From positions 2,208,001-2,272,000 of the forward strand of contig CAVZZO010000001.1 in NCBI GenBank assembly GCA_963779755.1: a stretch of 64,000 bases of DNA, read 5' to 3'. Within the stretch, counting starts at the first letter, position 1. Each line of letters opens with the position of its first letter. The notes below the pieces were generated by a model. The model made no database searches. It was not told where the DNA came from and saw nothing but the letters and a program-made list of their open reading frames with translations. This DNA comes from an uncultured Gemmatimonadales bacterium. GTDB taxonomy: Bacteria; Gemmatimonadota; Gemmatimonadetes; Gemmatimonadales; GWC2-71-9. The position numbers were made by a program, and so were the translations under genes. This document shows positions 5,153 to 28,406 of the stretch, in pieces.

Positions 5153-5425
5153 ATGGCTCATAAGAAGGGCGTCGGCTCCAGCCGCAACGGGCGGACCGCC
5201 AATCCGAAATATCTTGGCGTCAAGAAGTTCGGCGGCGAACGGGTCCGCGCCGGCATGATCCTGGTCCGCCAGCGGGGGACCAGGTTCCACCCCGGCCGCA
5301 ACGTGCTCCGCGGCTCCGACGACACACTGTTTTCCACCGTCGACGGCGTCGTGAAGTTTGAATATCGTGACAAGAACCGGAAGCAGGTGTCGGTCTACCC
5401 GCCCGAGGCTGCGGCCACCGCCTGA
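5153..5425 (+). CDS. rpmA: 50S ribosomal protein L27
   Basis: [35 protein letters not shown]. Confidence 0.98.
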
Positions 5426-5450
5426 TTTCGCGGCATCAGTCCAGCTCCCC

Positions 5451-5480
5451 CGGGACGCCTTTCGGCGTCCCGTTCTTGTT
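5451..5480 (+). terminator. Intrinsic terminator after rpmA
   Basis: CGGGACGCC-tttc-GGCGTCCCG followed by TTCTTGTT. Confidence 0.8.
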
Positions 5481-5622
5481 GCCGGTTCGGCCGTCCCCCC
5501 TTGGCCCCTCAGCAGGCTCCCTGCATATTGCAGGATGAAACATCTGGCGCAGCCCGGCCGTCGTGACCAGTGCCGCTCGCCGGACTCTGGCGACAGGCGA
5601 CCGACGACTCGGAGGGGAGATC

Positions 5623-5982
5623 ATGGGAACGATTCTGGAACGCCTCAACCGTGAGCTGGAACAGATGGGCCGGCGGGCGCAGGCCGCGCTGGACGAGGGC
5701 AGGCTTCAACTGGAGCTGCTGCGGCTGCGCCGCCAGCGCGACAATGCCGCGGGGGATCTGGGCCGCCTCATCTACAAGCGGGAGCGGGGCGGGGAGGTGG
5801 AACCGGCACGGATCGACGCCCTGCTGCTCCGGCTGGATGATATCGAAGCCGCCATCGACAAGGTGGAACACCAGATGCGGAGCGTGAAGGCCGAGGCGGT
5901 GGTGGAGGAGGAGCCGGTGCCGGCCGGCGCCGGTGCCGCTCCCGAGCCGCCGCCGGGTGCGGAGGAAGGATCTCCCAGCTGA
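5623..5982 (+). CDS. Hypothetical coiled-coil protein
   Basis: GGAGG SD before ATG 5623; amphipathic helical sequence; GC3-rich codons. Confidence 0.75.
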   Translation: MGTILERLNRELEQMGRRAQAALDEGRLQLELLRLRRQRDNAAGDLGRLIYKRERGGEVEPARIDALLLRLDDIEAAIDKVEHQMRSVKAEAVVEEEPVPAGAGAAPEPPPGAEEGSPS

Positions 5983-6047
5983 GGGATCAGGAATCAGGAA
6001 CCAGGGGGTACCTGTCCCCTGATTCCTGACTCCTGGCTCCCGATCCC
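5983..6047. repeat. Heptamer (CAGGAAT-type) tandem-repeat inverted element between convergent stops
   Basis: GGGATCAGGAATCAGGAACCAGGGG ... CCCCTGATTCCTGACTCCTGGCTCCCGATCCC, filling the gap from stop to stop. Confidence 0.85.
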
Positions 6048-7364
6048 CTAGTAGTTCGGCGGCAGTGTCCGATAGCGCTCCCGCAGTTCGGTCTGCCGGC
6101 TCACCAGGGGAATCTCCCGCCCCCGGATCAGGACGTGCTCCGGCGCGGTGTCGAATTCGAACGGATCGCCGCTCCAGACCACCAGGTTCGCCACCTTGCC
6201 CTTCTCCAGCGATCCATAGCCGCTGAGGCCGAAGGCCAGCGCCGGGGCCAGCGTGACGGCGCGCAGCGCATCCTCCCACGGCAGGCCGTCCCGCACGGCA
6301 TGCCCGGCGGCGAAGCGGAGATCGCGCGGCCCGCCCTCTTCGTTCTCCACCACCATGACCGGGACACCGGCCTTGCGGAGCAGCGCCGCGTTGTCCAGGC
6401 GGGCCCCGAGCCCGTCGAACGAGGGAATGTCGGTGAGCGGATAGACGGCGACCGGCACGTGCGCGGCCGCCAGCTCCGGCGCGACCTGCCACGCCTCCGT
6501 GCCGCCCAGGATGACCAGGCGGAGGCCGTATTCCCGGGCGATCCGCAGACTGTTCTCGATGTCGCTGCGCCGGTTGGCAAGCGCGTAGACCGGCAGGGAG
6601 CCCGCCAGCACCTGGCTCAGCGCTTCGAGATCGGCCGCGGGGGCGGCCAGGTCCTGCATCTGTCGCTTCCGGAAGTCCGGCTTGCGCCGCTGGTATTCGC
6701 GGGCATCATCGAACACATGCCGTAGCCGCTCCAGCACGCCGGCCCGGCTGCCGCCTCCGGCCTCCTTGCTGTTCTCGCTCAGGTCGATAACCATGGCGAC
6801 GGGCGACCGGGCCACCAGGTCCTCGATACGTTCACCGTCGAGATCGATGAACGCCGCCTGGCCGGCGATCAGCCCGCCCCTCGGCAGCGACAGCGCCGAG
6901 GTGACCCCCGCGATCCGGGCCACCGGGATCGGGACGGACGCCGGATCGATCCCTTCGGCCACATTGAAGGCCGCGTTGATGTCGCCGGTTTCCCGGGCTT
7001 CGTTGGTGCCGGGGACCGAGCCCACGTCGCGCAATCCAAGATCGCTCGCCGCATCGATGAGTCCGGGCGTCACCCACTTGCCGGTGGCGTCGATCCGGGT
7101 GGCGCCCGCCGGAATGGCGAGTCCGGTTCCTACCGCGACGATCTTCCCGTCCTGAATCAGCACCGTTCCCTGCTCGATCTTCGGCCCGGATACCGGGTAG
7201 ACCGTTCCGCCCGTGATCGCGATGGTCTGCGCCCGGAGGGGAGTTGCCACCAGGCCGAAGAGCGCGAGAGCGGCGAGTCCTGCCGCCCTGCGACCGAGCG
7301 GCCCTCCAATGGAGAGGCCGCGAAGAAGTCCTTTAGGGCCGTCCTGCCGTCTTGCCGTCCTCAT
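6048..7364 (-). CDS. Secreted amidohydrolase-family protein, probably lacking metal ligands
   Basis: TIAITGGTVYPV, IDATGKWVTPGLIDA, GSLEKGKVANLVVWSGDPF; ATGA overlap with the upstream gene's stop; HxH replaced by ASD. Confidence 0.85.
   Translation of the reverse strand: MRTARRQDGPKGLLRGLSIGGPLGRRAAGLAALALFGLVATPLRAQTIAITGGTVYPVSGPKIEQGTVLIQDGKIVAVGTGLAIPAGATRIDATGKWVTPGLIDAASDLGLRDVGSVPGTNEARETGDINAAFNVAEGIDPASVPIPVARIAGVTSALSLPRGGLIAGQAAFIDLDGERIEDLVARSPVAMVIDLSENSKEAGGGSRAGVLERLRHVFDDAREYQRRKPDFRKRQMQDLAAPAADLEALSQVLAGSLPVYALANRRSDIENSLRIAREYGLRLVILGGTEAWQVAPELAAAHVPVAVYPLTDIPSFDGLGARLDNAALLRKAGVPVMVVENEEGGPRDLRFAAGHAVRDGLPWEDALRAVTLAPALAFGLSGYGSLEKGKVANLVVWSGDPFEFDTAPEHVLIRGREIPLVSRQTELRERYRTLPPNY
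7277..7361. repeat. Dispersed ~85-bp element (octamer GCCGTCCT repeats plus unique core), copy 1, inside a CDS N-terminus
   Basis: Aligns by eye with 12300-12385, e.g. CTGCGACCGAGCGGCC, TCCAAT and GAAGTCCTTTAGGGCCG. Confidence 0.85.
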
Positions 7365-8767
7365 CGTCCCACCCCCGGTTCGGCGGTTCCCAGGTTGAAA
7401 TCGGTCTCCGGGCGGCGGGCCGGGTCCTCGCGGTCGTAGACCAGCCAGCCGTCGTTGAACACCTTGTCCGCCCGGGTGTAGATGGAGAAGGGGTCGCCCG
7501 ACCAGAGGACGACATCGGCTTCCTTGCCTGCCTCGAGCGACCCGGTGGTACTGTCGATGCCCAGCGCCCAGGCCGGGTTGATCGTAATCCAGCGGATCGC
7601 CTGCTCCCGCGTCACCGGGATGCCCGCCTGGTTCCCGGCATACATGGCCTTGGCGGCCTCCTGGTTCAGCCGCTGAATCCCGTCGGGGTCGTCGGAATGG
7701 ATGATCACGCGGGCCCCCGCCTTCTGCAGCAGTGCCGCGTTCTCCGGAATACCGTCGAATGCCTCCATCTTGAAGCCCCACCAGTCGGCCCACACCGAGC
7801 TGGCGACACCTTCCTTCGCCAGCAGATCGGCGATCTTGTACGCCTCCACCGCGTGGTGGAACGAACGGATCCTGAACCCGAACTCGTGGGAAAGATCGAT
7901 CATCTGGGCCATTTCGTCGGCCCGGTAGCAGTGGTTATGCACCAGCATGTGTCCCCGCAGCACTTCGGCCAGCGTCTCCAGCTTGAGGTCGCGGGCCGGC
8001 GGGTCGCCCTTGTGATCCGCATTCCATTCATCCCACCGCCGGCGGTATTGCTCGGCCTCGATGAACGCCGCGCGATAGCCCGCCATGTTGCCCATGCGGG
8101 TCGAGGGGCCGCCCCGATCGCCGTAGACCCGCTTGGGGTTTTCCCCGCAGGCCATCTTCAGGCCGTAGGGAGCCCCGGGATATTTCATCTCCTGGACGGT
8201 GCGGGCGGGAATGAGCCGGAGCGTCGCGGAGCGGCCGCCGATCAGGTTGGCCGAACCCGGCAGCGCCTGAATGACGGTAATGCCGCCGGCGATCGCCAGC
8301 GGGATCTGCGGATCCTGCGGCCAGAAGGAGTGTTCCGCCCAGACATTCGCCGTCACCGGGTTGGTGGCCTCGTTGCCGTCGCTCTCGGCGAAGGTTCCCG
8401 GCGCCGCGTAGACGCCGATGTGGCTGTGGTCGTCGATGATGCCGGGCGTCACCCACTTGCCGCTGCCGTCGATCACCAGGGCGCCGGCCGGCGCGGTGAG
8501 CGCCGAGTCGGCCACGGCCACCACCCGTCCGTCGGCAAAGAGAATCGAGGCCTGGTGCAGCTCGGCCCCCGCCGCGGTAAGGATGCTGGCGTCCCGGATC
8601 AGGACCGGCTGGAAGGCGTGCCGGTGGTAGGTGGACGGATACTGGGGGCGGTCGACACTGGTCGACTCGGCCGCGGCGGCCATCGCCGGGGCCGGCCCCG
8701 GTCCCGACGGCGGGGCGCAGCCGGCGACCGACGCCAGCAGGAGCAAGGACAAGAGGCTGCGTGACAT
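7361..8767 (-). CDS. Metal-dependent amidohydrolase lipoprotein (imidazolonepropionase-like)
   Basis: Lipobox VAGC; PGIIDDHSHIG, LKMACGENPKR, HNHCYRADE, FHHAVE, IHSDD, WITINPA. Confidence 0.9.
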   Translation of the reverse strand: MSRSLLSLLLLASVAGCAPPSGPGPAPAMAAAAESTSVDRPQYPSTYHRHAFQPVLIRDASILTAAGAELHQASILFADGRVVAVADSALTAPAGALVIDGSGKWVTPGIIDDHSHIGVYAAPGTFAESDGNEATNPVTANVWAEHSFWPQDPQIPLAIAGGITVIQALPGSANLIGGRSATLRLIPARTVQEMKYPGAPYGLKMACGENPKRVYGDRGGPSTRMGNMAGYRAAFIEAEQYRRRWDEWNADHKGDPPARDLKLETLAEVLRGHMLVHNHCYRADEMAQMIDLSHEFGFRIRSFHHAVEAYKIADLLAKEGVASSVWADWWGFKMEAFDGIPENAALLQKAGARVIIHSDDPDGIQRLNQEAAKAMYAGNQAGIPVTREQAIRWITINPAWALGIDSTTGSLEAGKEADVVLWSGDPFSIYTRADKVFNDGWLVYDREDPARRPETDFNLGTAEPGVGR

Positions 8768-8791
8768 GGCGATCTCTGATCTGGAATGGAG

Positions 8792-9649
8792 CTAGGGGAA
8801 AAGCCGGAGACTGTTCTCCGAAGTGATCTGCCGCTCGATGGCCGCCGGCAGTTCCAGGCCACGGAATTGCCGCAGATTGGTCCCCATGTCCCGCACGCCG
8901 GGACTGGGCCAGTCGGTGCCCCAGAGCGTCTTGTGGCTGATTTCGGCCAGACGGGGAAAATAGTCCAGCAGTCTCGCCGGCGGGATGCCGGAAACTTCGA
9001 GGAACACGTTCGGATGGCGCCGCAGGATGAAGAACGCCTCCTCCATCCAGAAAGGGCGCCCGCCATGCGCCATCAGGATAGTCAGATCGGGGAAATCGAT
9101 CGCCACGTCGTCCAGCTCGAGCGGGTTGCCCCACTTGGAGCGCGCGCCGGGGAAGATGCTGGTGCCGGTGTGAATCATGACCGGCAGCCCACGGTCCTCA
9201 CAGCGGCGGTAGATGCGGCCCAGCGCGTCGAGGCCCTCGGTGTAGGCGTTCGCGGGATACAGCTGGTGGGGTGGGTGGATCTTGAGGCAGCGGATGCCCA
9301 GGTCGGCCAGCCGGTCCACGTCGCCCTCGGGGTCGGTCGTGAAGCGCGCGTGCACGCCGCCGAAGGGCAGCATCCGCTCCGGCGCCTTCGAGGCGTACTC
9401 CACCGCGAAATCATTGGTGGAGTCGTCGAATCCCATGAGGTCGGGACTGGGGTAATTGATGAGCCCCACTCGCCAGATCCCGGCCTCGTCCATCACCTGG
9501 AGCAGCAGGCGCGGATCTTCCATCAGGGCGATCAGCCGCTCCCAATGATCCTCTTTGCCTCGCCGCATTGCCGCCATCACGGCCGGCTTGAGCTGCCGCC
9601 ACGGCTGGATATGGATGTGGAGGTCGGTGACGGGCGGGATCGGTGTCAT
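8792..9649 (-). CDS. Amidohydrolase_2 family TIM-barrel protein
   Basis: DLHIH, LKIHPPHQ, PVMIHTG, ILMAHGG, LWGTDWP; AAGGA SD before ATG 9649. Confidence 0.88.
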   Translation of the reverse strand: MTPIPPVTDLHIHIQPWRQLKPAVMAAMRRGKEDHWERLIALMEDPRLLLQVMDEAGIWRVGLINYPSPDLMGFDDSTNDFAVEYASKAPERMLPFGGVHARFTTDPEGDVDRLADLGIRCLKIHPPHQLYPANAYTEGLDALGRIYRRCEDRGLPVMIHTGTSIFPGARSKWGNPLELDDVAIDFPDLTILMAHGGRPFWMEEAFFILRRHPNVFLEVSGIPPARLLDYFPRLAEISHKTLWGTDWPSPGVRDMGTNLRQFRGLELPAAIERQITSENSLRLFP

Positions 9650-9660
9650 GGGGTCCTTAT

Positions 9661-9754
9661 GGTAGGCGGTAAACGGTAAGCGGTAAGCGGTAAGCGGGCT
9701 CGCATCGGAAAGCCTGGGCGCGGGCCCGCTCACCGTTCACCGCTGACTGCTCAC
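9661..9754. repeat. Heptamer (GGTAAGC/GGTGAGC) tandem-repeat inverted element
   Basis: GGTAGGC GGTAAAC GGTAAGC x3 ... CCGCTCACCGTTCACCGCTGACTGCTCACC. Confidence 0.85.
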
Positions 9755-10533
9755 CTTCCCGGGAACTCCGCTTTCCGCTTTTCCAGGAACGCCTTCACCC
9801 CTTCCGCCTTGTCCTCGCTGGCGAAGGCCACGCCGAACAGGGTGGTCTCCTGCCGCAGTCCCTCGTCCAGCGAGGTCCGCAGCGACGCGCGGACGGCCTC
9901 CTTGATGAGTTGCAGCGCCACCGGACTCTTCTCCGCGATGCTCGTCGCCAGCCTCATGACATGCTCCCGCAGTCCGGCGGCCGGCACGACTTCGTCCACC
10001 AGGCCGATACGCAGCGCCTCCGCCGCGTCGATCAGCTCGCCGGTGAAGAGCAGCCGGTAGGCTCGCCCGGGGCCCACCAGCCGGGGCAGTCGCTGGGTGC
10101 CGCCCCCGCCGGGAATGATGCCCAGGTTGACCTCCGGCTGTCCCAGCTTCGCGGTATCCGCCGCAACCCGGATATCGCAGGCCATGGCCAGCTCGCAGCC
10201 GCCGCCCAGGGTGAAGCCGTTCAGCATGGCGATGACCGGCTTGGGGAACTGTTCCACCGCGTCGAAGATGGTGGGCGCGCGCATGACCCGGAACTGATCT
10301 ACCGCGGTGCGCCCCTCGAACTCGCCGATATCGGCCCCGGCGACGAAGGCCTTCTCGCCCGCGCCGGTCAGCACTACCACCCGGACGGACTGATCGGCCC
10401 GCAGCTGGTCGAGCACCCCCAGCAGCTGGCAGCGGGTCGCGCCGTTCAGGGCGTTGCGCTTGTCGGGGCGGTTGATGGTCACCAGGGCCACCGCTCCCTG
10501 GCGTTCGGTCAGCACCAGTTCTGGCTCAGTCAT
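9751..10533 (-). CDS. Enoyl-CoA hydratase (PaaF-like crotonase)
   Basis: [47 protein letters not shown]; both catalytic Glu present. Alternative start at 10545. Confidence 0.92.
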
Positions 10534-10535
10534 GG

Positions 10536-11396
10536 TCAGGTCCACTCGTAGAAGCCGCGGCCGGTCTTCTTGCCCAGATGGCCACCGGCCACGAGGTGCC
10601 GCAGGATAGCGGGAGGCTCGTACTGCGCGCCTCCCAGGGTCTCGTGCAGGTGCTCGGCGATGCGGAGCCGCACATCCAGCCCCACCAGATCGGTCAGGCG
10701 AAGCGGCCCCATGGGGTGATTATAGCCCAACGCCATCGCCCGGTCGATGTCGGCCGCCTCGGCCACGCCCTGCTCCAGCATGCGCATGGCCTCGAGGCCG
10801 AGCACGACCCCCAGCCGGCTGGAGGCGAAGCCGGGCGAGTCCCGCACCACCACGGCTTCCTTCCCCAGGCGCGATACTACGGCGCGGGCGTCGGCCAGCG
10901 CCCCGGCCGACAGGCCGTCGTGCGTGACGATCTCGACCAGCCGCATCAGGTGCACCGGGTTGAAGAAGTGCAGGCCCAGAAACCGCTCGGGGTGGGGCAG
11001 GCCGGCGGCGAGCCGGCCGATGGACAGCGAGGAGGTGTTGGAGGCCAGCAGCGCCTCATCGGCGGCCGCCCCGGCTGCTTGGCGCAGGACATCGAGCTTG
11101 ATCTCCGCCCGCTCGATCACCGCCTCGATGACAAGGCCGGCGCCCCGGGCGGCATCCGCCACGGACGGAGCGGCGTGGATCCTGGCCTGGATGGCGGTGC
11201 GGTCGCCGGAAGACATCTTCCCCCGGGTGACCGCGCCCTCCAGGGTCCGGGCGATACGCTCCTGTGCGGCGGCTGGTGCGGCCGGATCGGCATCGGCCAA
11301 CCAGGTCTCCCACCCCGCCGTGGCGGCGGCCTGCGCAATGCCCGCGCCCATGGTTCCCGCTCCCAGCACCGCCACTCGTCCCACGTCGAACGTCAT
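10536..11396 (-). CDS. 3-hydroxyacyl-CoA dehydrogenase (PaaH-like)
   Basis: GAGTMGAGIA, VIEAVIE, ASNTSSL, GLHFFNP, PMGPLRLTDLVGLDV, GKKTGRGFY. Confidence 0.94.
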   Translation of the reverse strand: MTFDVGRVAVLGAGTMGAGIAQAAATAGWETWLADADPAAPAAAQERIARTLEGAVTRGKMSSGDRTAIQARIHAAPSVADAARGAGLVIEAVIERAEIKLDVLRQAAGAAADEALLASNTSSLSIGRLAAGLPHPERFLGLHFFNPVHLMRLVEIVTHDGLSAGALADARAVVSRLGKEAVVVRDSPGFASSRLGVVLGLEAMRMLEQGVAEAADIDRAMALGYNHPMGPLRLTDLVGLDVRLRIAEHLHETLGGAQYEPPAILRHLVAGGHLGKKTGRGFYEWT

Positions 11397-12076
11397 GGGC
11401 CCTCCGTCAACGCCGCCCGGAGGCGGTCCGGGTGATTGCCGCAGATGCCGTCGACACCGAGAGCGGCCAGCCGCCGGGCTTCCGCCGGTGTGTTCACCGT
11501 CCAGGCGATCACCGCGGCCTCAGCGCCGTGCACCGCCTCGACCAGCGAACGGTCGATGAGCTGGAACGATTGCCAGAGCATGGTGGCGCCGGCATCCTGC
11601 AGCAGTCGCACCGGGTTCAGACAGTAGGCGCTGAGCAGGAGCCCCCGCGGCGGGCCGCCCTGCCGGGCCAGCCGGGCGATGATCCGGTGATCGAAACTGT
11701 GAACGGCGTAGCCGCCGGGATTGGGGCCCTGCGCTGCCGCCGCCAGTAGCCGGGCGTCATGCGCGGGCGCCAGGGTCTTGATCTCGATGTACACGCGCAG
11801 GCTGCCGGCGATATCCAGCACCTCCGGGAGAGTAGGAACCGTCTCGCCGTTGGGCAGGCGGAACTCCCGGATGTCGGGATAGGACAGATGCCCGATCGGT
11901 CCCAGGCCAGGCAGCTCGGCGTCGTGGTGAACCATCAGGATGCCGTCCTGGGTGGAATGCACGTCCAGCTCGACGCCGTCCGCTCCCAGTTCTACCGCGC
12001 GCCGGAAGGCGGCCCGGGAGTTCTCATACTCGGCGCCGGAGGCGCCGCGGTGGGCGATGATGAGGGGGAGCGACAT
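11393..12076 (-). CDS. Glycerophosphodiester phosphodiesterase family protein
   Basis: IIAHRGAS, ENS, GADGVELDV, HHD, PTLPEVL, IEIK, AWTVN, GVDGI. Confidence 0.9.
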   Translation of the reverse strand: MSLPLIIAHRGASGAEYENSRAAFRRAVELGADGVELDVHSTQDGILMVHHDAELPGLGPIGHLSYPDIREFRLPNGETVPTLPEVLDIAGSLRVYIEIKTLAPAHDARLLAAAAQGPNPGGYAVHSFDHRIIARLARQGGPPRGLLLSAYCLNPVRLLQDAGATMLWQSFQLIDRSLVEAVHGAEAAVIAWTVNTPAEARRLAALGVDGICGNHPDRLRAALTEGP

Positions 12077-12120
12077 GAAGCGTGTAAGATAAGGCGGCAG
12101 GGCGACAGGGCGGCAGCGTG

Positions 12121-12197
12121 CTGTCACCCTGAGCGGTAGCGAAGGGGCCGAAGCCGATCGATTGGTTCCGGCCGCTTCGCTGTGCTCAGCGTGACGG
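12121..12197. repeat. REP-like palindrome with TGTCA(C/T) ends
   Basis: TGTCACCCTGAGCGGTAGCGAAG ... CTTCGCTGTGCTCAGCGTGACG; related half-sites at about 12227-12249 and 14341-14369. Confidence 0.75.
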
Positions 12198-12269
12198 CGT
12201 TCCTCGCCAAGTGCCGGTGGCAAGCCGCTTTGCGCCCTCGCAATGACAGCTATTTGAGGCTCGGCTACC

Positions 12270-12388
12270 TTGCCGTCCTGCCGTCCTGCCGTCCTGCCCG
12301 TCCTGCCGTCCTGCGACCGAGCGGCCTCCAATAGAAAGCCGAGAGGAAGTCCTTTAGGGCCGCCTTGCCGCCTTGCCGCCTTGCCGCC
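12270..12388. repeat. Octamer arrays (GCCGTCCT, GCCGCCTT) flanking a core shared with 7277-7361 (copy 2)
   Basis: Tandem octamers on both sides of the core; complementary GGCGGCAG arm at 12091-12118. Confidence 0.85.
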
Positions 12389-13516
12389 CTAGTTCAGCTC
12401 CAGCTTCCGCGGCTCGATCCAGCCCTCGTCCTTGCAGACGGTATGAATGAGTTCGCGGTCCTGCGTCGTGGGGGTGACGGTCGCGAGGTAATCCGCGTAG
12501 CGCTCCGGGTCCATCTCCTCGCCCTCTACGCTGTAGCTCTGCCGGGCGTGGACCCCGATCTTCCGGTTAAACTTGAGGTCGGGCACCGTGAGGTGCCGCT
12601 CCTTTTCCGGTATCGCCATGTTGAGCCGGTCGACCAGCCGGGTGATTTCCTGCCGGTAGAGCTCGCGGCTGGCCTCGTTCAGATGGGCAACGTCGGCCGG
12701 ATCGCCGCTTTCCCGTTCATTGAACCGGCCCTTGAGCCCCCAGACGTAGGCCCAGTGGGCGCTGGAGGAGTTGTCGGTGCCGAACAGGTCGAAGGCGGTC
12801 GGGACCCACTTGTTGAAGTACCGCTGCATCACCTCGGGCGGAATGCGTCCCGCCTTGACGATGCGCAGCAGCCCGTTGTTGCCGGTGCCCAGGTGGAAGC
12901 TCTCTTCCTTGAGCATGGGCCCCATGGAACAGGCCAGCGGCTGGAAGGCGGAGGTGGAGAGCATCTTGAGCTGGAACTTGCCGTCGCGGTCGATGAACTG
13001 GGTGTAGGTATAGAAGTCGAGCCAGTTCTCCACGATTTCGTTGAAGGAGCCCAGCAGTCGCTCGCCCTCTTCCGCCCGGCGCTCCAGCAGTTTGGAGGCC
13101 TCCCGGCGGCCCTCGTCGCCGAAGTGGGCGCAGAGCAGGTAGGACATCTGCCAGCCGTGCCGCATCTCCTCGCTCATCACCCGGATGAGGGCATAGAGAT
13201 CATAGTCGCTGGGAGCGTTGGTCAGCAGGTTGCGCTGCTGCTCCACCGAGGCAAATTCGGTGTCGCCCTGATAGACGATCAGGTTCAGCAGCGCGTCGCG
13301 CACCCGCTGATCGGGAATATGCATGACGCTGGGCCACTTCCGGTTGCCCTTGTAGTGCCCGAATTCGATGGCCTCGGCTTCCGGCTCCGCGAAGAGCGCG
13401 TCGAACCTGAACTGCTTCGGGGTGTACTTCTTGAACTCGTCGAGCGGGAGGCCAATGGACTCCTGCCAGTAATGGAAGTAGTCGATCCAGTCGTCGAAGT
13501 TCATCAAACGCCGCAT
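12389..13516 (-). CDS. BoxB-like diiron aromatic-CoA ring epoxidase (short form, 375 aa)
   Basis: QGDTEFASVEQQR, APSDYDL, EEMRH, DRDGKFQL, EESFH, GLKGRF and FNRKIG parallel benzoyl-CoA epoxidase BoxB motifs (QGDTEPASVEQQR, EEGRH, DRDGKFQL, EEAHH); CAGGAG SD before ATG 13516. Confidence 0.88.
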   Translation of the reverse strand: MRRLMNFDDWIDYFHYWQESIGLPLDEFKKYTPKQFRFDALFAEPEAEAIEFGHYKGNRKWPSVMHIPDQRVRDALLNLIVYQGDTEFASVEQQRNLLTNAPSDYDLYALIRVMSEEMRHGWQMSYLLCAHFGDEGRREASKLLERRAEEGERLLGSFNEIVENWLDFYTYTQFIDRDGKFQLKMLSTSAFQPLACSMGPMLKEESFHLGTGNNGLLRIVKAGRIPPEVMQRYFNKWVPTAFDLFGTDNSSSAHWAYVWGLKGRFNERESGDPADVAHLNEASRELYRQEITRLVDRLNMAIPEKERHLTVPDLKFNRKIGVHARQSYSVEGEEMDPERYADYLATVTPTTQDRELIHTVCKDEGWIEPRKLELN

Positions 13517-13533
13517 GATGGTCTCCTGATCGT

Positions 13534-14328
13534 TCAGTGGCCCTGAAAAGCCGGTGATCGTTTGCTTTCGAAAGCGGCGAGACCCTCCGCCGCGTCGGCA
13601 CTCCTGAAACATTGTTCCTGGTTGGCAATCTCACGGGCCAACGCCTGGGCCAGGCCGTCGGTGGTGCCGGCGTAGACGGCCTCCTTGGCGAGGCGCGCCG
13701 CGATGGGCGGCAGCGCCGCCAGCTTCGCCGCCCAGGCGGCCGTCTCGCCGGGCAGCGCGGCGGCCGGAACCACGCGGTTCACCAGGCCCAGCTCGAGGCA
13801 GCGGGCGGCCGGCACGACGTCGGCCGACCAGATCAGCTCCAGCGCCCGGCTGGTGCCTGCCAGGCGGGGCAGGAACCAGGTGCCGCCCATGTCCGGGTGC
13901 AGGCCGATGCGGTGAAAGACCTGGCCGATGCCGGCGGTGTCGGCCGCGATCCGCAGATCGCAAGCCAGCGCGAGGTTGGCGCCGCCCCCGGCGGCGACCC
14001 CGTTGAGACTCGCCAGGACGGGCTTCGGCGCCTGGTGCAGAATGCTGACCAGCTCGCTGCCGGAGCGCACCAGTCCCATGGCGCCCTGCCAATCCTCATC
14101 CTTGAGTACCCGGCTCATGTACTTGACATCGGCGCCGGCGCAGAAGGCCTTCCCGGCGCCGGTCACCACGATGCAGCGCACCGCGTCGTCGGTGGCCAGC
14201 TCGCCAGCCGCCTCCACCAGCTCGTGCCGCATGACGTCGTCGAACGCATTCATGCGATCGGGGCGGTTCAGCAGGAGCGTGCCGATGCCCTTCTCCACGG
14301 TGGTCGCTACGTATTGCCAGGCTCCCAT
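13534..14328 (-). CDS. PaaG-like enoyl-CoA isomerase/hydratase
   Basis: NRPDRMNAF, AFCAGAD, AAGGGANLALACD, GLHPDMGGTWFLPRL; Asp-type catalytic motif, hydratase Glu residues absent. Confidence 0.85.
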   Translation of the reverse strand: MGAWQYVATTVEKGIGTLLLNRPDRMNAFDDVMRHELVEAAGELATDDAVRCIVVTGAGKAFCAGADVKYMSRVLKDEDWQGAMGLVRSGSELVSILHQAPKPVLASLNGVAAGGGANLALACDLRIAADTAGIGQVFHRIGLHPDMGGTWFLPRLAGTSRALELIWSADVVPAARCLELGLVNRVVPAAALPGETAAWAAKLAALPPIAARLAKEAVYAGTTDGLAQALAREIANQEQCFRSADAAEGLAAFESKRSPAFQGH

Positions 14329-14499
14329 AGGCCCTCGTCGTTGTCATTCCGAGCACAGCGCGGAAATCTTTCGGCCGCGCTTGCCCTCGCCGAGCCTCCC
14401 TCCGCGCGCCGAAGTGCGCCACAAGGAAAACGCGACGCATCTTCCGAGGGCACATACGCGCGCTGCGGGGGGCACCGGCTTCGGGCCCGCGCTAGCTTC

Positions 14500-14607
14500 G
14501 CTTCCCGCCTTCCCCGCCTTCCCGCCTTCCCGCCTTCCCGCCTTCCCGCCCTTCCTTCACTCCCCCACTCCCCGACTCCTCACTCCTCAATCCTCAATCC
14601 TCAATCC
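14500..14607. repeat. Octamer (TTCCCGCC) and heptamer (CCTCAAT) tandem arrays
   Basis: About five CCGCCTTC units at 14502-14550; CCTCAAT x3 at 14585-14607 supplies the thiolase stop codon. Confidence 0.85.
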
Positions 14608-15799
14608 TTTCCACGATCATCGCGATCCCTTGCCCCACGCCGATGCACATCGTGGCCAGCCCATAGCGTCCGCCGGTGCGGCGCAGGGCGTGGACCAGGG
14701 TGGTGAGGATCTTCGCCCCCGAGGCGCCCAGCGGGTGCCCCAGGGCGATCGCCCCGCCGTAGATGTTGACCCGCTCGGGGTCGAGCCCCAGCTCCCGGAT
14801 ACAGGCGATGCTCTGCGCGGCGAAGGCTTCGTTCAACTCGACCAGGTCGATCTGATCGAGCGTGAGGCCGGCGCGCGCCAGCGCCTTCCGCGTCGCCGGG
14901 ATCGGTCCCAGCCCCATGCAACTCGGGTCCACGCCCGCCACCGCTGTGGTCACCACCCGCGCCAGCGGGGTCACGCCGTACTCCGGGGCCCGGGCGGCGG
15001 CCACGACGGCCAGCGCCGCGGCGCCGTCGTTGATGCCGCTGGCGTTGCCGGCGGTCACGGTCCCCTCCGCCTCGAAGGCCGCCCGGAGCCGCCCCAGGCC
15101 CTCCGGCGTGATCCCCTCGCGGGGGTGCTCGTCGCGCGCGAACGTACGGATCTGGCCTTTCAGCGGCGGCAGCTGCACCGGCACCAGCTCATCGCCGAAG
15201 ACGCAGTCGGCCAGGGCCTGCTGCGCCCGCCGCTGGCTTTCCGCCGCAAAGGCGTCCTGCTCTTCCCGGCTGATGCCGTACTGTCGCGCTACCTTCTCTG
15301 CCGTGCTGCCCAGGGAGATGGTGTACTCCTTCGGCATCCGCGGGTTCACGAACCGCCAGCCGACCGTTGTATCGGCGGTCTCCGGTGCGTGCCGGTCCCA
15401 GGCGGTGCCGCTCTTGCGCATCACGTAGGGGGCGCGGGTCATGCTCTCGACCCCGCCGGCGACGAAGACCTCGCCCTCGCCCGCCCGGATCGCCTGCGAC
15501 GCCGAGGCCACGGCCTGCAGCCCGGAGCCGCAGAGCCGGTTGACGGTCTGCCCCGGCACTTCAATGGGAAGCCCGGCGAGCAGGGCGGCCATTCGCGCCA
15601 CATTGCGGTTGTCTTCGCCCGCCTGGTTGGCGCAGCCCAGGATCACATCGTCGATAGCGGCAGGATCGAGATTCGCGCGCCCCACGACCGATTTGATGAT
15701 CCCGGCCGCCAGGTCGTCCGGCCGCACCTCGGCCAATCCGCCGCCCGCGCGCCCTACCGGCGTCCGCAACGCCGCGGTAATGAACGGCTCGGGCCTCAT
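14594..15799 (-). CDS. Thiolase (PaaJ/PcaF-like 3-oxoadipyl-CoA thiolase)
   Basis: [58 protein letters not shown]. Confidence 0.93.
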
Positions 15800-15806
15800 C
15801 GGACGG

Positions 15807-15840
15807 TCCCCTGAATCCTGGTCCCTGATTCCTGATTCCT
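15807..15840. repeat. Heptamer (CCTGATT-type) tandem repeat
   Basis: CCCTGAATCCTGGTCCCTGATTCCTGATTCC directly after the aldehyde dehydrogenase stop. Confidence 0.8.
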
Positions 15841-17276
15841 CATGCCAGATTCACCCACACCGTCTTCACCTCGGTGTAGCCGTCGAGTGCTACCCGGCCC
15901 AGGTCGCGGCCGAAGCCCGACTGCTTGTAGCCGCCGAAGGGAGCGGCCGGGTCGTAGATGTTGTAGGTGTTGATCCAGACGGTGCCGGCCTTGACCGCCC
16001 GGGCCAGCCGGTGGGCCTTGCCGATGTCGCGGGTCCAGATGCCGGCGGCCAGCCCGTACATGGACTGATTGGCCAGGTGCGCGGCCTCATCGAAATCGTC
16101 GAAGGGGAGCACCGCCAGCACCGGGCCGAAGATTTCTTCCCGCGCGATGGTCATCTCCGGCGTGACCCCGTCGAAGATGGTGGCCTCGACGTAGTAGCCC
16201 TTGCCGTTCACCTGGGCCGCCTTGCCGCCGGCCACCAGGCTGGCGCCTTCCGCTGTGCCCTTCGCCACGTAGCCGAGCACCGTCTCCTGCTGCTTCTTCG
16301 AGACCAGCGCCCCCAGGCGGGTATTCTTGTCGAAGGGATCGCCGGGGGTGAGCTTCTTCGCCCGGGCCGCCAGCTGTTCCACCACCTGGTCCTTGACCGA
16401 GCGCTCTACCAGCAGCCGGCTGCCGGCGGCGCAGACCTCGCCCTTGCCGTAGAAGATCCCGGTCTGGGCCCCGCGCACCGCCGCGCCCAGATCCGCATCG
16501 GCGAAGACCACATTGGGACTCTTGCCGCCCAGCTCGAGCGTGATCCGCTTCACGGTGTCGGCGGCGTCGCGCATGATGCGCTTGCCGACCTCCGTGCTGC
16601 CGGTGAAGGAGATCTTGTCCACCGCGGGGTGCTTCACCAGCGCCGAGCCGGCCACCGAGCCCTGGCCCGGCACCACGTTGAGCGCCCCGGCGGGGAAGCC
16701 GGCGTCGAGCATCACCCGGCCCAGGGCCAGCGCGGTGAGCGGCGTTTCGGTGGCCGGCTTGAGCACCACGGTGCAGCCGGCCGCCAGCGCCGGCGCCACC
16801 TTCCACATGGCCAGATTGAGCGGGAAGTTCCAGGGAACGATCGCTCCCACCACGCCCACCGGCTCCCGCAACGTATAGGTGAAGAAGGGGCCGTCCACCG
16901 GCACCGTCTCGCCGCCCAGCTTGTCGCTCCAGCCGGCATAGTAGCGCAGCGTGTCCACCGACATCCCGACGTCGATTTTCGATTCGAAGAAGGGCTTGCC
17001 GTTCTGCCGCGATTCGATGGTCGCGATGTCGTTCTTCCGTTCCTCCAGCAGGTCGGCGGCCCGGGCCAGCAGCCGGCCGCGCTGGCGGGGCGACATCTTC
17101 TGCCAGTCGGCGGAATCGAAACAGGTACGGGCCGCCTCCACCGCGGCGGCCACGTCCTCCGGACCGGCCAGCGCCGGCTCGGCCAGCACTTCTTCGGTGG
17201 CGGGGTTCACCACGGAGAAGCGCTTGCCGGAGGCTGCGGGCTGGAAACGGTTTGCTATAAAGAGATCGGTCTCCAT
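15840..17276 (-). CDS. NAD(P)-dependent aldehyde dehydrogenase (candidate BoxD equivalent)
   Basis: [59 protein letters not shown]. Confidence 0.94.
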
Positions 17277-17292
17277 CGCTCGATTTCGTAAT

Positions 17293-17374
17293 GGTGAGCG
17301 GTGAGGAGTGAGCGGTAAGCGGGGTGGTGAGCGGGGGAGGGCCCGCTCACCGCTTACCGGTTACCGCTCACCGT
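17293..17374. repeat. Heptamer (GGTGAGC) tandem-repeat inverted element
   Basis: GGTGAGCGGTGAGGAGTGAGCGGTAAGCGG ... CCGCTCACCGCTTACCGGTTACCGCTCACCG. Confidence 0.85.
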
Positions 17375-17375
17375 C

Positions 17376-18206
17376 TTACCGTGCCTTGAAGGTCGCCATC
17401 CGCTTCTCCACGTAGGCCGCCAGGCCTTCCTTGGCATCCTCCGACTGGAAGAGCTGCTGCTGCAGCTCGCGCTCGATGGCGAGCGAGCTCTCGAAGGGCA
17501 CCTCGAGGCCCGACTGCACCGCCCGCTTGATGAGTCCTACGGCCTTGGAGGCCTTGTGCGGCGGGCAGAACTGCCGGGCATAGAGCTGGATGTTTTCCCA
17601 CCAGTTGTCCGGGTCGAACACCTTGTTGATCACGCCCAGCTCCTCGGCGGTCTCGAAGGAGAAGGTCTCGCCGGTTGCCATGAGTTCGATCGCCCTGGAC
17701 TTGCCCACCAGCCGGCAGAGCCGCTGGGTCCCGCCGGTCCCGGGCAGCACGCCCAGATTCACCTCGGGCAGGCCGATCTTGCCGGCGTTGCGCTTCGCCA
17801 CCCGGATGTCGCAGGCCATGGCGATCTCCAGCCCGCCGCCCACGGTGTGGCCGTTCAGGGCCGCGATGGTGAGCTTCGGCGTCTGCTCCAGCCGGTTCAG
17901 CGTCTCGTTGGCGTGGAGGCAGAAGAAGTATTTGAAGCGCGGCGTCACCGTGTTGAGCATCTGGATGTTGGCGCCGGCGGAGAAGAACTTCTCGCCGTGG
18001 CCGCGGAGCACGATGACATGCGCGTCATCGGCCATGCGCGCGTCGAGGATGGCCGCGTCGAGCTGGCGCATCATCTCGTAGGTGTAGGTGTTGGCCGGGG
18101 GATCGTTCAGGGTGATGATGGCGAGGCCGTCCTGCACCTCGTAGTTCACCAGCACCTTGTCGGTCGGCGCCGGGGCGCCGGGGCGGGGAGCCATGGTTGT
18201 TGCCAC
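17376..18206 (-). CDS. Crotonase-family protein resembling the catalytic domain of BoxC (ring-cleaving hydrolase)
   Basis: FSAGANIQML...KYFFCLHANETLNRLE, GGGLEIAMACD, LPEVNLGVLPGTGG; GGAGG SD before GTG 18206. Confidence 0.85.
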   Translation of the reverse strand: MATTMAPRPGAPAPTDKVLVNYEVQDGLAIITLNDPPANTYTYEMMRQLDAAILDARMADDAHVIVLRGHGEKFFSAGANIQMLNTVTPRFKYFFCLHANETLNRLEQTPKLTIAALNGHTVGGGLEIAMACDIRVAKRNAGKIGLPEVNLGVLPGTGGTQRLCRLVGKSRAIELMATGETFSFETAEELGVINKVFDPDNWWENIQLYARQFCPPHKASKAVGLIKRAVQSGLEVPFESSLAIERELQQQLFQSEDAKEGLAAYVEKRMATFKAR

Positions 18207-18211
18207 GATTG

Positions 18212-18820
18212 CTATCCTCCGTGCGAGACGGCCAGGGCGGCGGCCGTCTGAGTGGTGGGTTGCAGGAATCCCGCAAGAAAGAGCTGCGCCATGCCGTCGG
18301 CCAGGCGCTCCGGGGACAGGCGGCCCCCGGGGTGGTACCAGGTGTAGATCCAGTTCATCATGCCGAAAAGCGCGTAGGCGGCCAGCTCCCGGTCGACATC
18401 GACGCCGGGAACCTCTCCCAGCAGTTCCAGCAGGAGATCGACATACTCCCGCTTGCGCCGGCGGATCTGGGCCCGCATCGTCCCGTCCAGTTCGTCCTCC
18501 TCGTGCGACAGCACCTTCATCTCCGCCATATGCGCGGTGAAGAACTCCACATGATGACGGATGAAACCGCGCAGCCGTTCCACCGGGTCGCTCGCTCCGG
18601 CCACCGCCTCCCGCGCCCCGGTAATGACCTGGGCGAAGCAGCGGTCCTGGATGAGAAACAGGAGCTCGGTCTTGCTGCTCACATAGTGGTACATGCCGGC
18701 CAGGCTCATGCCGCTGGCCCGGGCCAGCGCCCGCATGGACGTGCCCTGAAAGCCCTGGTCGGCAAAGACCCGGACCGAGGCCGTCAGCAGCTTCTGGAGA
18801 CGTTCGTCAAAAGGTTCCAT
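18212..18820 (-). CDS. TetR-family repressor (PaaR/KstR2-like)
   Basis: FADQGFQGTSMRALARASGMSLAGMYHYVSSKTELL helix-turn-helix; C-terminal GMMNWIYTWYHPGG. Confidence 0.92.
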   Translation of the reverse strand: MEPFDERLQKLLTASVRVFADQGFQGTSMRALARASGMSLAGMYHYVSSKTELLFLIQDRCFAQVITGAREAVAGASDPVERLRGFIRHHVEFFTAHMAEMKVLSHEEDELDGTMRAQIRRRKREYVDLLLELLGEVPGVDVDRELAAYALFGMMNWIYTWYHPGGRLSPERLADGMAQLFLAGFLQPTTQTAAALAVSHGG

Positions 18821-18832
18821 TTCCTGCCCGTC

Positions 18833-18881
18833 CGAACGTTCGTTCGAACGCAACCTACTGCCGCCCCAAGGGCTGGGTCAA
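18833..18881 (-). promoter_or_regulatory. Sigma70 promoter plus PaaR-type operator for the catabolic operon
   Basis: Minus-strand TTGACC (18881-18876)-N18-TAGGTT (18857-18852); palindrome CGAACG-TT-CGTTCG at 18833-18846 over the predicted transcription start. Confidence 0.75.
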
Positions 18882-18905
18882 CCGCCGGGCGTCCGGGGAG
18901 TTAAC

Positions 18906-19487
18906 ATGGAGCGTGGCCCCACGTCCCTCTCCCTGCCCATGAGCGCTCTTGCCCGGCCGGACCCGGTCCTCGACGCCGCGCTGGTCGCCGCCTGCCGGGG
19001 CGGTGACCAGCGGGCGGCCGCCCAGCTGGTCGAGGCCCATGCCCCTGCCGTGGGCCGCTTTCTCTACAGCGCGGGCGCCGCTCCGGCGGACATCGAAGAT
19101 CTGGTGCAGGAGGCGTTCTTTCGTGCCTTTCGGCGGCTCGAGACGTGGCGGGCCGAGGCATCCTTCCGGGCCTGGTTGTTCAGCATTGCCGGCAACCTGC
19201 TCAAGGACCAGTTCCGCCGGGCGCGCGGCCGGCGGTTCCTGCCGCTGGAGGATCGTGACCTCCCCGATCGCCGCGACCCCGCGGCCACCCTGGAGGCCAC
19301 GGAGGCGGCGAAGCGGTTGCGGGAAGAGCTGGCGCGTCTGCCCCGGCTGCAGCGGGAGGTGTTCCTGCTGCGGGTCCAGGAGGGTTCGGATTACACCGCC
19401 ATCGCGGCGGCGCTGGGGACCACGCCGGGGGCGGCGCGGGTGCACTATCACCATGCGGTCAAGCGATTGAAGGAGCACCTGGCATGA
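18906..19487 (+). CDS. ECF RNA polymerase sigma factor
   Basis: DIEDLVQEAF, FRAWLFSIAGN, LPRLQREVFLL, region 4 helix-turn-helix. Start may be 18939. Confidence 0.92.
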   Translation: MERGPTSLSLPMSALARPDPVLDAALVAACRGGDQRAAAQLVEAHAPAVGRFLYSAGAAPADIEDLVQEAFFRAFRRLETWRAEASFRAWLFSIAGNLLKDQFRRARGRRFLPLEDRDLPDRRDPAATLEATEAAKRLREELARLPRLQREVFLLRVQEGSDYTAIAAALGTTPGAARVHYHHAVKRLKEHLA

Positions 19488-20017
19488 CCACCTGTGAACA
19501 GCTGTCCGATCGGATGCCCGCGGTGGCGCGCGGCCAGTCGGCCTGGACCCCCGGGGAGCGGATGCATCTGGAGGCCTGCCCCGGGTGCCGCCGGGAGTGG
19601 GAACTGGTCCGGCTGACGGCGGGGTTGGGGCGGGAGTGGGAAACCAGGATCGACGGCGCCCGGATGGCCCGGGCGGTGAGCGCCCGGCTTGCCCGGGAGG
19701 GCCGGCGCCACCAGCACCGGCGGCGCTGGACCTGGAGCGGGGTGGCCGCCCTGGCGGCTGCCGCGGCCCTGGCACTGGTGTTCCGGGCTCCCTGGCGGCC
19801 CCGGGCCCTTCCCGCGCGCACCGGTCCGGTGGCCGCCGCCTCGGGGGAGTTTGTCATTCCGGTTGCCGGGATCGACAGCCTGAGCGCCGATCAACTCGAA
19901 AGCGTGCTCGAAACGATGGACGTACCGCTCATCAGCACGACGTCCGTGGAGGCGCCGTCGCTGCAGGAACTGGATGATCAACAGCTCGAGCGGGTACTCC
20001 GCTCCCTGGAGGGATGA
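19484..20017 (+). CDS. Zinc-binding (ZAS) membrane anti-sigma factor
   Basis: C..., HLEACPGC (HxxxCxxC), one TM segment; ATGA overlap with the sigma gene. Confidence 0.85.
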   Translation: MTTCEQLSDRMPAVARGQSAWTPGERMHLEACPGCRREWELVRLTAGLGREWETRIDGARMARAVSARLAREGRRHQHRRRWTWSGVAALAAAAALALVFRAPWRPRALPARTGPVAAASGEFVIPVAGIDSLSADQLESVLETMDVPLISTTSVEAPSLQELDDQQLERVLRSLEG

Positions 20018-25604: not shown

Positions 25605-25633
25605 TTGACTGTATCTAGAAGTCTAGGTATCGT
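25605..25633 (+). promoter_or_regulatory. Sigma70 promoter of furA-katG with a putative Fur-family operator
   Basis: TTGACT-N17-TATCGT ending 7 nt before ATG 25641; imperfect inverted repeat CTTGA-N5-TCTAG over the -35. Confidence 0.7.

Positions 25634-26059: not shown

Positions 26060-28406
<2,347 letters not shown>

Follow-up and report, generated by a model that had tools for sequence, protein, structure and literature searches.

A 64,000-nucleotide stretch of the genome of an uncultured Gemmatimonadales bacterium (assembly GCA_963779755.1, contig CAVZZO010000001.1, positions 2,208,001 to 2,272,000; hereafter the window) carries a run of nine genes, all on the minus strand from position 18853 down to 9751, which is read here with moderate confidence as a compact Box-type pathway that would open the ring of a coenzyme A (CoA) thioester in an O2-dependent manner and feed a lower pathway of the 3-oxoadipyl-CoA type. 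The substrate would be benzoyl-CoA or a close aryl-CoA. The genes encode, in order, a TetR-family regulator, a first crotonase (croA), an aldehyde dehydrogenase (ALDH), a thiolase, a second crotonase (croB), a short BoxB-type diiron protein, a GDPD-family phosphodiesterase, a 3-hydroxyacyl-CoA dehydrogenase (HADH) and a third crotonase (croC). This co-oriented run had been proposed in an earlier note made from the DNA letters alone (the original prediction), and the open reading frame (ORF) listing together with Pfam and NCBIfam scans bears it out. To our knowledge, two systems, Box and Paa, are known to cleave rings aerobically via CoA epoxides, and nearly all work on them has been done in Proteobacteria. 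Each of the two relies on reductases and ligases of its own. As proposed here, the operon works like Box, yet its proteins fall outside the families that define BoxB, BoxC, BoxA and PaaA to PaaE. The homologies and the synteny are direct observations, whereas all of the chemistry is what we infer from them.

The first line of evidence is the diiron protein (12389..13516, minus strand). Its start is most likely Met33 of a longer ORF, giving a gene at 13516-12389 and a protein of 375 amino acids (aa), because the recorded form is the same and the lengths of the homologues agree. The protein scored 226.4 bits against the BoxB model TIGR03225, in three stretches and with an identical result in the whole-genome search, below the cut-off of 499.1 bits, and 41 bits against the PaaA model TIGR02156, below the cut-off of 280 bits; PF05138 matched at 51.3 bits. 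Among solved structures, BoxB (3PER) is the closest by far in sequence (E 4.9e-55), followed by SSO1313 of Sulfolobus solfataricus (4MUD; E 2.7e-17) and then by PaaA (1e-6). An AlphaFold2 model (alignment of 45 sequences, pLDDT 94.8) matched the BoxB fold in Foldseek (3Q1G, 3PER and 3PM5; TMq 0.86-0.88, TMt 0.69-0.71, 32-33% identity), the TM-score to PaaA being approximately 0.52, and the look-alikes in the ESM Atlas were members of the short-form family and canonical BoxB, with nothing else. SSO1313 is likewise a short, uncharacterised member of the BoxB/PaaA superfamily, labelled 'ring oxidation complex/phenylacetic acid degradation-like protein', but it consists of 235 aa with the four-helix core only (TMq 0.50) and is far more distant than BoxB. 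The diiron protein is BoxB-type rather than PaaA-type, and the type assigned to the epoxidase by the original prediction is borne out by both comparisons (226 versus 41 bits; TM-score 0.87 versus 0.52).

The active site was examined with the residue lists given in PMC5489048, which names Glu120, Glu150, His153, Asp211, Glu240 and His243 as the diiron ligands of Azoarcus evansii BoxB and Gln116, Thr119, Ser123, Phe193, Phe203, Phe206 and Thr210 as the residues that orient the benzoyl group; the numbers were transferred to the diiron protein through a HMMER alignment. Within these lists, the six iron ligands correspond to E87, E117, H120, D176, E205 and H208 and are invariant in 40/40 short-form sequences. 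Five of the seven benzoyl-contact residues are retained in the window protein, namely Gln116 (conserved in 40/40 short forms), Thr119 (39/40), Ser123 (39/40), Phe193 (40/40) and Phe203 (37/40), and the other two are taken up below. Judged by its sequence, the diiron protein is a shortened homologue of BoxB in which the diiron site is complete and the predicted acyl pocket mostly resembles that of BoxB. In a quick maximum-likelihood tree of 37 sequences rooted on two PaaA proteins, canonical BoxB formed an 11-row clade (SH-aLRT 100, stem 1.48), and the window protein lay outside it, grouped separately with other short forms (18 in all; SH-aLRT 88), so that, in line with the original prediction, it is not nested in canonical BoxB. 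In P0195 (367 aa), a distant member of the family, five of the six iron ligands are replaced (E120H, E150N, H153S, D211N and E240H), and this protein may be a non-catalytic or differently metallated relative.

The second line of evidence is croA (17376..18206, minus strand), which encodes a single-domain, BoxC-like hydratase/hydrolase of 276 aa with one ECH_1 domain (180.7 bits) instead of the two-domain architecture of BoxC (approximately 550 aa). croA was the top match of the BoxC model in the genome, at 78 bits over model positions 66-227, below the cut-off of 712.3 bits, and it shares 27% identity (E 5e-16) with the BoxC of G189, a Gemmatimonadota genome described below. Both crotonase glutamates are kept (GGGLEIA, LPEV). 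The motif AGANI.ML...FC..NET was found in 8/8 croA proteins and 5/5 BoxC N-terminal domains and in 0/11 other crotonases, with the Rokubacteria croA reading FS and MM at two of its positions. In a quick tree of 41 crotonases with a thin background of reference sequences, the croA clade (SH-aLRT 98) was sister to the BoxC N-terminal domains (SH-aLRT 100) with a support of 94, and the croB and croC clades were separate from it. The names of croA homologues in the databases are all generic. The evidence that croA is a single-domain relative of the BoxC N-terminal domain is good but not conclusive, and by this relationship croA would be the ring-opening enzyme. This BoxC-like nature of croA is new here, alongside the Tyr/Ile signature of the oxygenase pocket. 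According to PMC4498308, BoxC and BoxB co-purify, BoxC relieves the product inhibition of BoxB, and the contact with BoxA is transient and involves small amounts. Natural fusions of approximately 1000 aa, in which BoxC forms the N-terminal and canonical BoxB the C-terminal part, were also observed (P0125, P0131, P0133, P0135 and P0138). Apparent fusions involving the short form (P0122, ECH with diiron; P0123, ALDH with diiron; P0076, diiron with GDPD) were dropped as evidence of coupling, being single records and maybe gene-call read-throughs.

Compared with the Box pathway of Azoarcus (Aromatoleum) evansii (3PER, 3PF7, 3PM5 and 3Q1G; models TIGR03225, TIGR03222 and TIGR03224), the operon has in common the diiron fold, the six ligands and most of the benzoyl-contact residues, as well as a crotonase probably related to the BoxC N-terminal domain adjoining the oxygenase, and then an ALDH; a lower route to 3-oxoadipyl-CoA is plausible. 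It differs in its shorter oxygenase outside the canonical clade, in its single-domain hydrolase and in lacking BoxA, benzoate-CoA ligase and a BoxR-type regulator in the genome or at the locus. The original prediction had called the cluster a hybrid of Box and Paa and a third architecture for ring cleavage. The Paa-like part of this description stands for croB, whereas the core looks like a trimmed Box module, because croA groups with the BoxC N-terminal domain and shares its motif. A third architecture overstates the distance from Box, a short BoxB with a single-domain BoxC-like hydrolase and an ALDH being better described as the trimmed form.

The third line of evidence is the conservation of the arrangement. 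When 8000 candidates were scored in a search with the diiron protein, 7444 reached E <= 0.001; the best 120 homologues, of at least 68% identity, are mostly labelled Gemmatimonadota, and a library of representatives at 50% identity gave 877 matches at E <= 0.001, with few full-length cluster representatives. Among species-representative genomes, 585 of the 599 pattern matches encode a relative of the diiron protein. For synteny, the proteins of the window were placed by tblastn (E <= 1e-10, at least 50% coverage, best non-overlapping assignment) in the best 80 of these 585 loci, and only loci with enough flank were counted (at least 6 kb upstream for TetR to croB), with Gemmatimonadota recognised by title; the remaining loci belong to Acidobacteriota, Rokubacteria, Bacteroidota, Armatimonadota, Zixibacteria, Chloroflexota, Planctomycetota and Binatia, plus three titled 'bacterium'. 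TetR, croA, ALDH, thiolase and croB each occur in 35/35 Gemmatimonadota loci, in the same order and on the same strand. The downstream genes are somewhat more variable in this phylum (GDPD 39/41, HADH 37/41, croC 22/41). In the remaining loci, croA was found, adjacent to the diiron gene, in 14/19, TetR in 11/19, croB in 6/19, ALDH in 5/19, GDPD in 1/18 and the thiolase in 0/19. This arrangement is far beyond chance, and by these counts the architecture is conserved and widespread. Across phyla, the median identity of croA is 70% versus 59% for the diiron protein. croA and the diiron gene form the core; TetR usually accompanies them and ALDH often does, and the full lower pathway and GDPD are an elaboration of the Gemmatimonadota.

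The same data bear on the possibility that the gene run is not one unit, i.e., that an ordinary fatty-acid or short-chain acyl-CoA operon has taken up the GDPD gene and a stray BoxB remnant, which may be inactive. Such an account would fit GDPD, which has no evident link to the chemistry, and the two repeat-bearing spacers of 265 and 312 bp that break the run in the window genome. The former, between the thiolase gene and croB (14329..14593), contains the tandem repeats ggattgag (three copies) and ggcgggaag (six copies) by direct reading. The latter, between the diiron gene and GDPD (12077..12388), holds short tandem 8-10-mers (ggcggcaagg, gcaggacg) and a dispersed genomic repeat, with 364 blastn matches in the genome and a match of at least 70 bp at 55 places; a part-copy (7277-7369) lies behind the amidohydrolase gene. 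The two spacers look like a family of dispersed, REP/MITE-like (repetitive extragenic palindromic/miniature inverted-repeat transposable element) intergenic elements. In relatives, they are absent and the genes abut, GDPD starting within a few bases of the diiron stop. Given also the order and strand kept in every Gemmatimonadota locus, the croA-diiron pair kept in 14/19 loci elsewhere and a diiron site intact in 40/40 sequences, a chance assembly of this kind is considered very improbable.

Regarding the remaining proteins of the proposed Box-type pathway, the family assignments are compatible with a ring-opened CoA-semialdehyde being processed to central metabolites. The ALDH (15840..17276, minus strand) is an NAD(P)-dependent enzyme (PF00171, 615.8 bits) whose best NCBIfam matches are StyD-type phenylacetaldehyde dehydrogenase (591 bits, below 800) and BADH (560 bits, below 669); we infer for it a BoxD-like role in the oxidation of the CoA-semialdehyde. 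The thiolase (14594..15799, minus strand) is 3-oxoadipyl-CoA thiolase-like, its best families lying just under their cut-offs (PRK09050, 557.5 of 605 bits; TIGR02430, pcaF, 546.5 of 597 bits), and it passes the generic model TIGR01930 (473.8 versus 240.55 bits). croB (13534..14328, minus strand) has the PaaG family TIGR02280 as its best NCBIfam match (203.3 bits, below 345.15), and 5ZAI (182.8 bits) and Escherichia coli PaaG 4FZW_C (180.5 bits) as its first and second solved relatives. It lacks both catalytic glutamates (GGGANLA, QVFH), and the hydratase glutamates are expected to be absent in an isomerase; the PaaG likeness that had been predicted for one of the proteins is upheld for croB. 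HADH (10536..11396, minus strand; PF02737, 185.6 bits; PF00725, 105.1 bits) matched PRK09260 at 301 bits (below 429) and PaaH at 221 bits (below 669). croC (9751..10545, minus strand; ECH_1, 247.6 bits) is an ordinary, PaaF-like enoyl-CoA hydratase with both catalytic glutamates (PRK05809, 293.5 bits; PaaF, 264.6 bits; both below cut-off). The TetR protein (18212..18853, minus strand) contains TetR_N (PF00440, 45.5 bits) and TetR_C_24 (PF17932, 101.8 bits) domains. It gave no NCBIfam equivalog above cut-off, the best being the SACE_7040 family at 77.9 bits against 250, and no PaaR model is among its matches in the Pfam and NCBIfam scans, so that the PaaR-type regulator of the original prediction is not established. 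Its best solved relatives are 5K7F, the nearest (118 bits), 3VPR and KstR2, which we take to be sensors of aliphatic or steroid acyl-CoAs. It is a probable acyl-CoA-responsive repressor of the operon.

According to this scheme, the short BoxB would first epoxidise benzoyl-CoA or a close aryl-CoA, using O2 and two electrons. croA would then add water and open the ring, and might also relieve product inhibition, as BoxC does for BoxB. The ALDH would oxidise the CoA-semialdehyde to dehydroadipyl-CoA, in which croB would shift the double bond; hydration by croC, oxidation by HADH and cleavage by the thiolase would yield succinyl-CoA and acetyl-CoA. The TetR protein would repress the operon until an acyl-CoA intermediate binds. 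The electrons would come from a non-dedicated donor, e.g., a general ferredoxin system, and the CoA ester would be supplied by another pathway or by a ligase or transferase that is not dedicated to the operon.

Several of these proteins would also suit a Paa-type route with a one-subunit oxygenase, in which the short BoxB epoxidises phenylacetyl-CoA, croB makes the oxepin and either croA or croB opens it; the ALDH would take the role of PaaZ or of PacL (as we take the separate ALDH of the split PaaZ variant to be named), the thiolase would act twice, and croC and HADH would finish a phenylalanine/phenylacetate route. The Paa pathway of E. coli and Pseudomonas (PaaABCDE/PaaG/PaaZ/PaaFHJ; PaaAC 3PW1) shares with the operon the CoA-epoxide logic and a set consisting of a PaaG-like croB, a PaaF-like croC, HADH and a 3-oxoadipyl-CoA-type thiolase. 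The best matches of the ALDH, although below cut-off, are phenylacetaldehyde dehydrogenases, the replacement of Phe206 by Tyr and of Thr210 by Ile could re-shape the pocket, and the genome shows no other route for the phenyl ring, the Paa oxygenase and homogentisate dioxygenase not being found in it and indolepyruvate oxidoreductase giving no match above cut-off. On the other hand, the residues by which BoxB holds the benzoyl thioester are retained in the pocket, and PMC4498308 reports that BoxB does not accept phenylacetyl-CoA. The genome lacks PaaB, PaaC, PaaD, PaaE, PaaZ and PaaK, and the oxygenase is its sole PF05138 protein, BoxB-like and not PaaA-like. The split PaaZ variant (NF046063, 'oxepin-CoA hydrolase, alternative type') likewise combines a stand-alone ALDH with a stand-alone crotonase, but croA reaches 123 bits and croB 171 bits on this model against a cut-off of 300, and croA groups with BoxC instead. 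The thiolase and croB are outside the core beyond Gemmatimonadota, and the neighbouring genes in Acidobacteriota, described next, point to benzoyl-CoA. A Paa-type route is therefore regarded as unlikely.

The hints to the substrate of the Box-type pathway come from Acidobacteriota, in which a molybdenum enzyme is encoded behind the cluster on the same strand at five loci (L078, 12303-15100; L080, 12977-15574; L083, 11247-15674; L089; and L092). For the three that were scanned, the best family was the alpha subunit of 4-hydroxybenzoyl-CoA reductase, TIGR03194 (996, 932 and 911 bits), with the next family at approximately 530-557 bits, and beta-like (331 versus 404 bits) and gamma-like (192 versus 258 bits) reductase subunits are present in the scanned loci. 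In L072 and L078, cyclohexa-1,5-dienecarbonyl-CoA hydratase is the best family (175-191 bits versus 292) of a crotonase encoded downstream of the diiron gene. 4-Hydroxybenzoyl-CoA reductase is usually tied to anaerobic aromatic metabolism, and here its relatives lie beside an O2-dependent oxygenase. These neighbours would act on benzoyl-type CoA esters, which supports an aryl-CoA, benzoyl-CoA in particular, as the likely substrate. A link between the operon and a reductase-like gene of the window genome itself (C1:384847-387081), which is accompanied by a 2Fe-2S subunit gene, was considered and rejected: no FAD subunit gene is adjacent, and the neighbours are an efflux pump and unrelated genes.

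The supply of electrons and of the CoA ester was addressed by whole-genome family searches in the window genome (4.23 Mb, 4 contigs, 97% complete). BoxA, BoxB and BoxC gave no match above cut-off in the whole genome, the best match of the BoxA model TIGR03224 being 23 bits over a ferredoxin-like stretch; the diiron gene is the only PF05138 gene. PaaK and PaaE gave 0 matches in the genome, and PaaZ gave none above cut-off. The four AMP-binding enzymes of the genome, all outside the window, are an acetate-CoA ligase, two fatty-acid-CoA-ligase-like proteins and an amino-acid adenylation protein, and 0/4 reach the score of the benzoate-CoA ligase family. The original observation that the window lacks BoxA/PaaE, PaaZ and a CoA ligase accordingly holds and extends, for BoxA, PaaE, PaaZ and aryl-CoA ligase, to the 97%-complete genome, which also contains no canonical boxA/boxC/ligase set elsewhere. 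In a search of the genome for a dedicated NuoF-like reductase, a single good NuoF homologue was found, approximately 14 kb past the end of the window, and is presumably part of complex I. Dedicated partners are rare over the 80 loci as well: a PaaK-superfamily ligase is near in one (L083), and a thioredoxin-like, NuoE-like 2Fe-2S ferredoxin and a NuoF-like flavoprotein (TIGR01959, 434 bits, below the cut-off of 559) come immediately after the diiron gene in another (L099, Binatia, 11118-12705). The latter pair may be a dedicated reductase, of a kind that is not known for the BoxB-type oxygenase family.

In 201 sampled Gemmatimonadota genomes, a tally that includes two unpublished genomes (G156 and G181), a match to the BoxB model was found in 52 and was above cut-off in two, both of one genus. 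These two genomes with canonical BoxB also lack BoxA above cut-off; therefore, within this phylum, genomes with the short form are not alone in lacking BoxA. The absence itself stands as originally predicted, but it is a less special feature than was supposed. At L117 (9144-12446) of the Gemmatimonadota genome G189, a canonical boxC-boxB pair (882 and 858 bits) adjoins an acyl-CoA synthetase gene; a PaaA/C/D cluster lies 18 kb away, and BoxA is not found above cut-off anywhere in that genome.

A number of observations weigh against the Box-type reading. The diiron protein scores less than half of the BoxB cut-off and is approximately 100 residues shorter than BoxB, missing an N-terminal segment, two internal segments and the C-terminal tail. 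In the numbering taken from the residue lists, Phe206 is replaced by Tyr and Thr210 by Ile or Val, each in 38/40 short forms, whereas three canonical BoxB sequences in the same alignment retain both residues; since these replacements are consistent in the family, the substrate or the regiochemistry may differ. Both trees carry SH-aLRT support only. The NCBIfam scan gave no BoxD-specific signal for the ALDH, and GDPD and the Amidohydro_2 protein encoded next to croC have no place in the scheme. Among 14 distant loci examined by Pfam, three (L082, L087 and L090) have the diiron gene without an acyl-CoA-pathway neighbour, and the sole related neighbours of the diiron gene in L099 are the NuoE/NuoF-like pair. 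The 4-hydroxybenzoyl-CoA-reductase-like scores in Acidobacteriota straddle the TIGR03194 cut-off of 994.55 bits, and the alpha-like gene of the window genome mentioned above, at 828 bits, is below it and 1.8 Mb away. Without a member of the aryl-CoA ligase family and a BoxA/PaaE-type reductase in the genome, two required inputs are unexplained. A literature search found no description and no assayed member of the short BoxB family.

Some of these points would be accommodated if the diiron protein oxidised a non-aromatic acyl-CoA, for example by hydroxylation or desaturation of an alicyclic or branched substrate, within a modified beta-oxidation operon whose resemblance to Box is ancestral only. 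The score far below the BoxB cut-off and the genome without an aryl-CoA ligase or reductase fit such a function, as do the acyl-CoA sensing ascribed above to the solved relatives of the TetR protein and the full set of hydratase, dehydrogenase and thiolase in the operon; an acyl-CoA dehydrogenase gene is also found in the window at 1195-2421. However, 37-40 of the 40 family members keep the residues on which the benzoyl ring packs in BoxB, ALDH is conserved though plain beta-oxidation needs none, croA is BoxC-like, and the neighbour in Acidobacteriota resembles 4-hydroxybenzoyl-CoA reductase. Oxidation of a non-aromatic substrate is consequently judged to be rather improbable.

A bolder form of the Box-type reading can be put forward tentatively. 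The short BoxB and croA might constitute a self-standing, BoxA-independent epoxidase and ring hydrolase, a simpler and possibly ancestral form of Box, which would use an aryl-CoA other than plain benzoyl-CoA, because the Phe206Tyr and Thr210Ile signature hints at it, draw electrons from a general or complex-I-type (NuoE/NuoF-like) source and represent a main, so far uncounted route for the turnover of aromatic carbon in Gemmatimonadota, Acidobacteriota and other phyla that dominate soils. Although this extension is possible, the odds are judged to be against it.

The phyla that carry the short form dominate soils and have few cultured members. The operon is probably an unstudied route for the breakdown of aromatic acids that is common in major soil phyla. 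A cluster look-up of the diiron family gave no named cultured organism, and the database names of the short form are inconsistent (BoxB, PaaA, PaaI and 'phenylacetic acid catabolic protein'). Automatic annotation currently scores the carrier phyla as 'boxB-positive' or 'paa-positive'. If the diiron protein does epoxidise an aryl-CoA and has a minimal BoxC-like partner, inferences on aromatic degradation from soil metagenomes would need a third marker, a simpler pair would be available for studying the minimal needs of BoxB/BoxC chemistry, and the question of the electron donor, which is not encoded here and may be the NuoE/NuoF-like pair in Binatia, would be directly testable. Besides the likeness of croA to BoxC and the Tyr/Ile pocket signature, the 4-hydroxybenzoyl-CoA-reductase-like neighbours and the genome-wide census of ligases and reductases are new in this analysis.

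GDPD (11393..12076, minus strand) is a small cytosolic phosphodiesterase of 227 aa, its start having been corrected to 12076. It passes PF03009 (109.6 bits versus a gathering threshold of 23.6), contains the HRG and ELDVH motifs and is most similar, among solved structures, to the GDPD of Thermus thermophilus (1V8E, E 4.9e-26); the NCBIfam scan gave no equivalog above cut-off. It is a lineage-specific accessory of the Gemmatimonadota version of the operon. In other loci, a NUDIX gene follows the diiron gene (L096, 11143-11553), and a Macro-domain gene lies behind the crotonase that is downstream of the diiron gene (L072, 11944-12498). With GDPD, three types of nucleotide or phosphodiester hydrolases are seen at or near the same position, and one tentative idea is that these accessory enzymes might deal with damaged CoA adducts. 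Three Acidobacteriota loci (L071; L072, 9179-9904; and L078, approximately 8376-9095) have a gene for a Peptidase_C26 or gamma-glutamyl-GABA-hydrolase-like protein between croA and the gene of the diiron protein.

Beyond croC, the same strand carries the Amidohydro_2 gene (8792..9733, minus strand; PF04909, 111.6 bits), followed by two amidohydrolase genes identified by Pfam. The Amidohydro_2 protein gave no NCBIfam match and has the uncharacterised 3IRS as its sole solved relative. Its gene is present in 39/41 Gemmatimonadota loci and also near the cluster in two Terriglobia loci (L092 and L097), and it probably belongs to the operon. The first of the two amidohydrolase genes (Amidohydro_1/3; 7361..8767, minus strand) is a loosely linked neighbour, its counterpart lying 4-5 kb further from the Amidohydro_2 gene in many relatives. 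Upstream of TetR, a divergent gene for a sigma factor of the extracytoplasmic function (ECF) type (18906..19487, plus strand; Sigma70_r2 and Sigma70_r4_2), with a possible anti-sigma ORF behind it (19484-20017), is likewise found on the opposite strand in most Gemmatimonadota loci. A scan for promoters and terminators over 5400-19600 gave no more sites than were found in shuffled sequences. The G+C content of the window is 66-72%, and the labels of the homologues point to Gemmatimonadota; among sequencing runs, a small share (0.15) of the sequence words matched in one soil-metagenome DNA run, and no RNA run was found to contain them. Farther along the window, at 25605-28406, a gene for a Fur-family regulator is followed by a gene for a catalase-peroxidase-type protein of 722 aa (PF00141), which together resemble an ordinary oxidative-stress pair.

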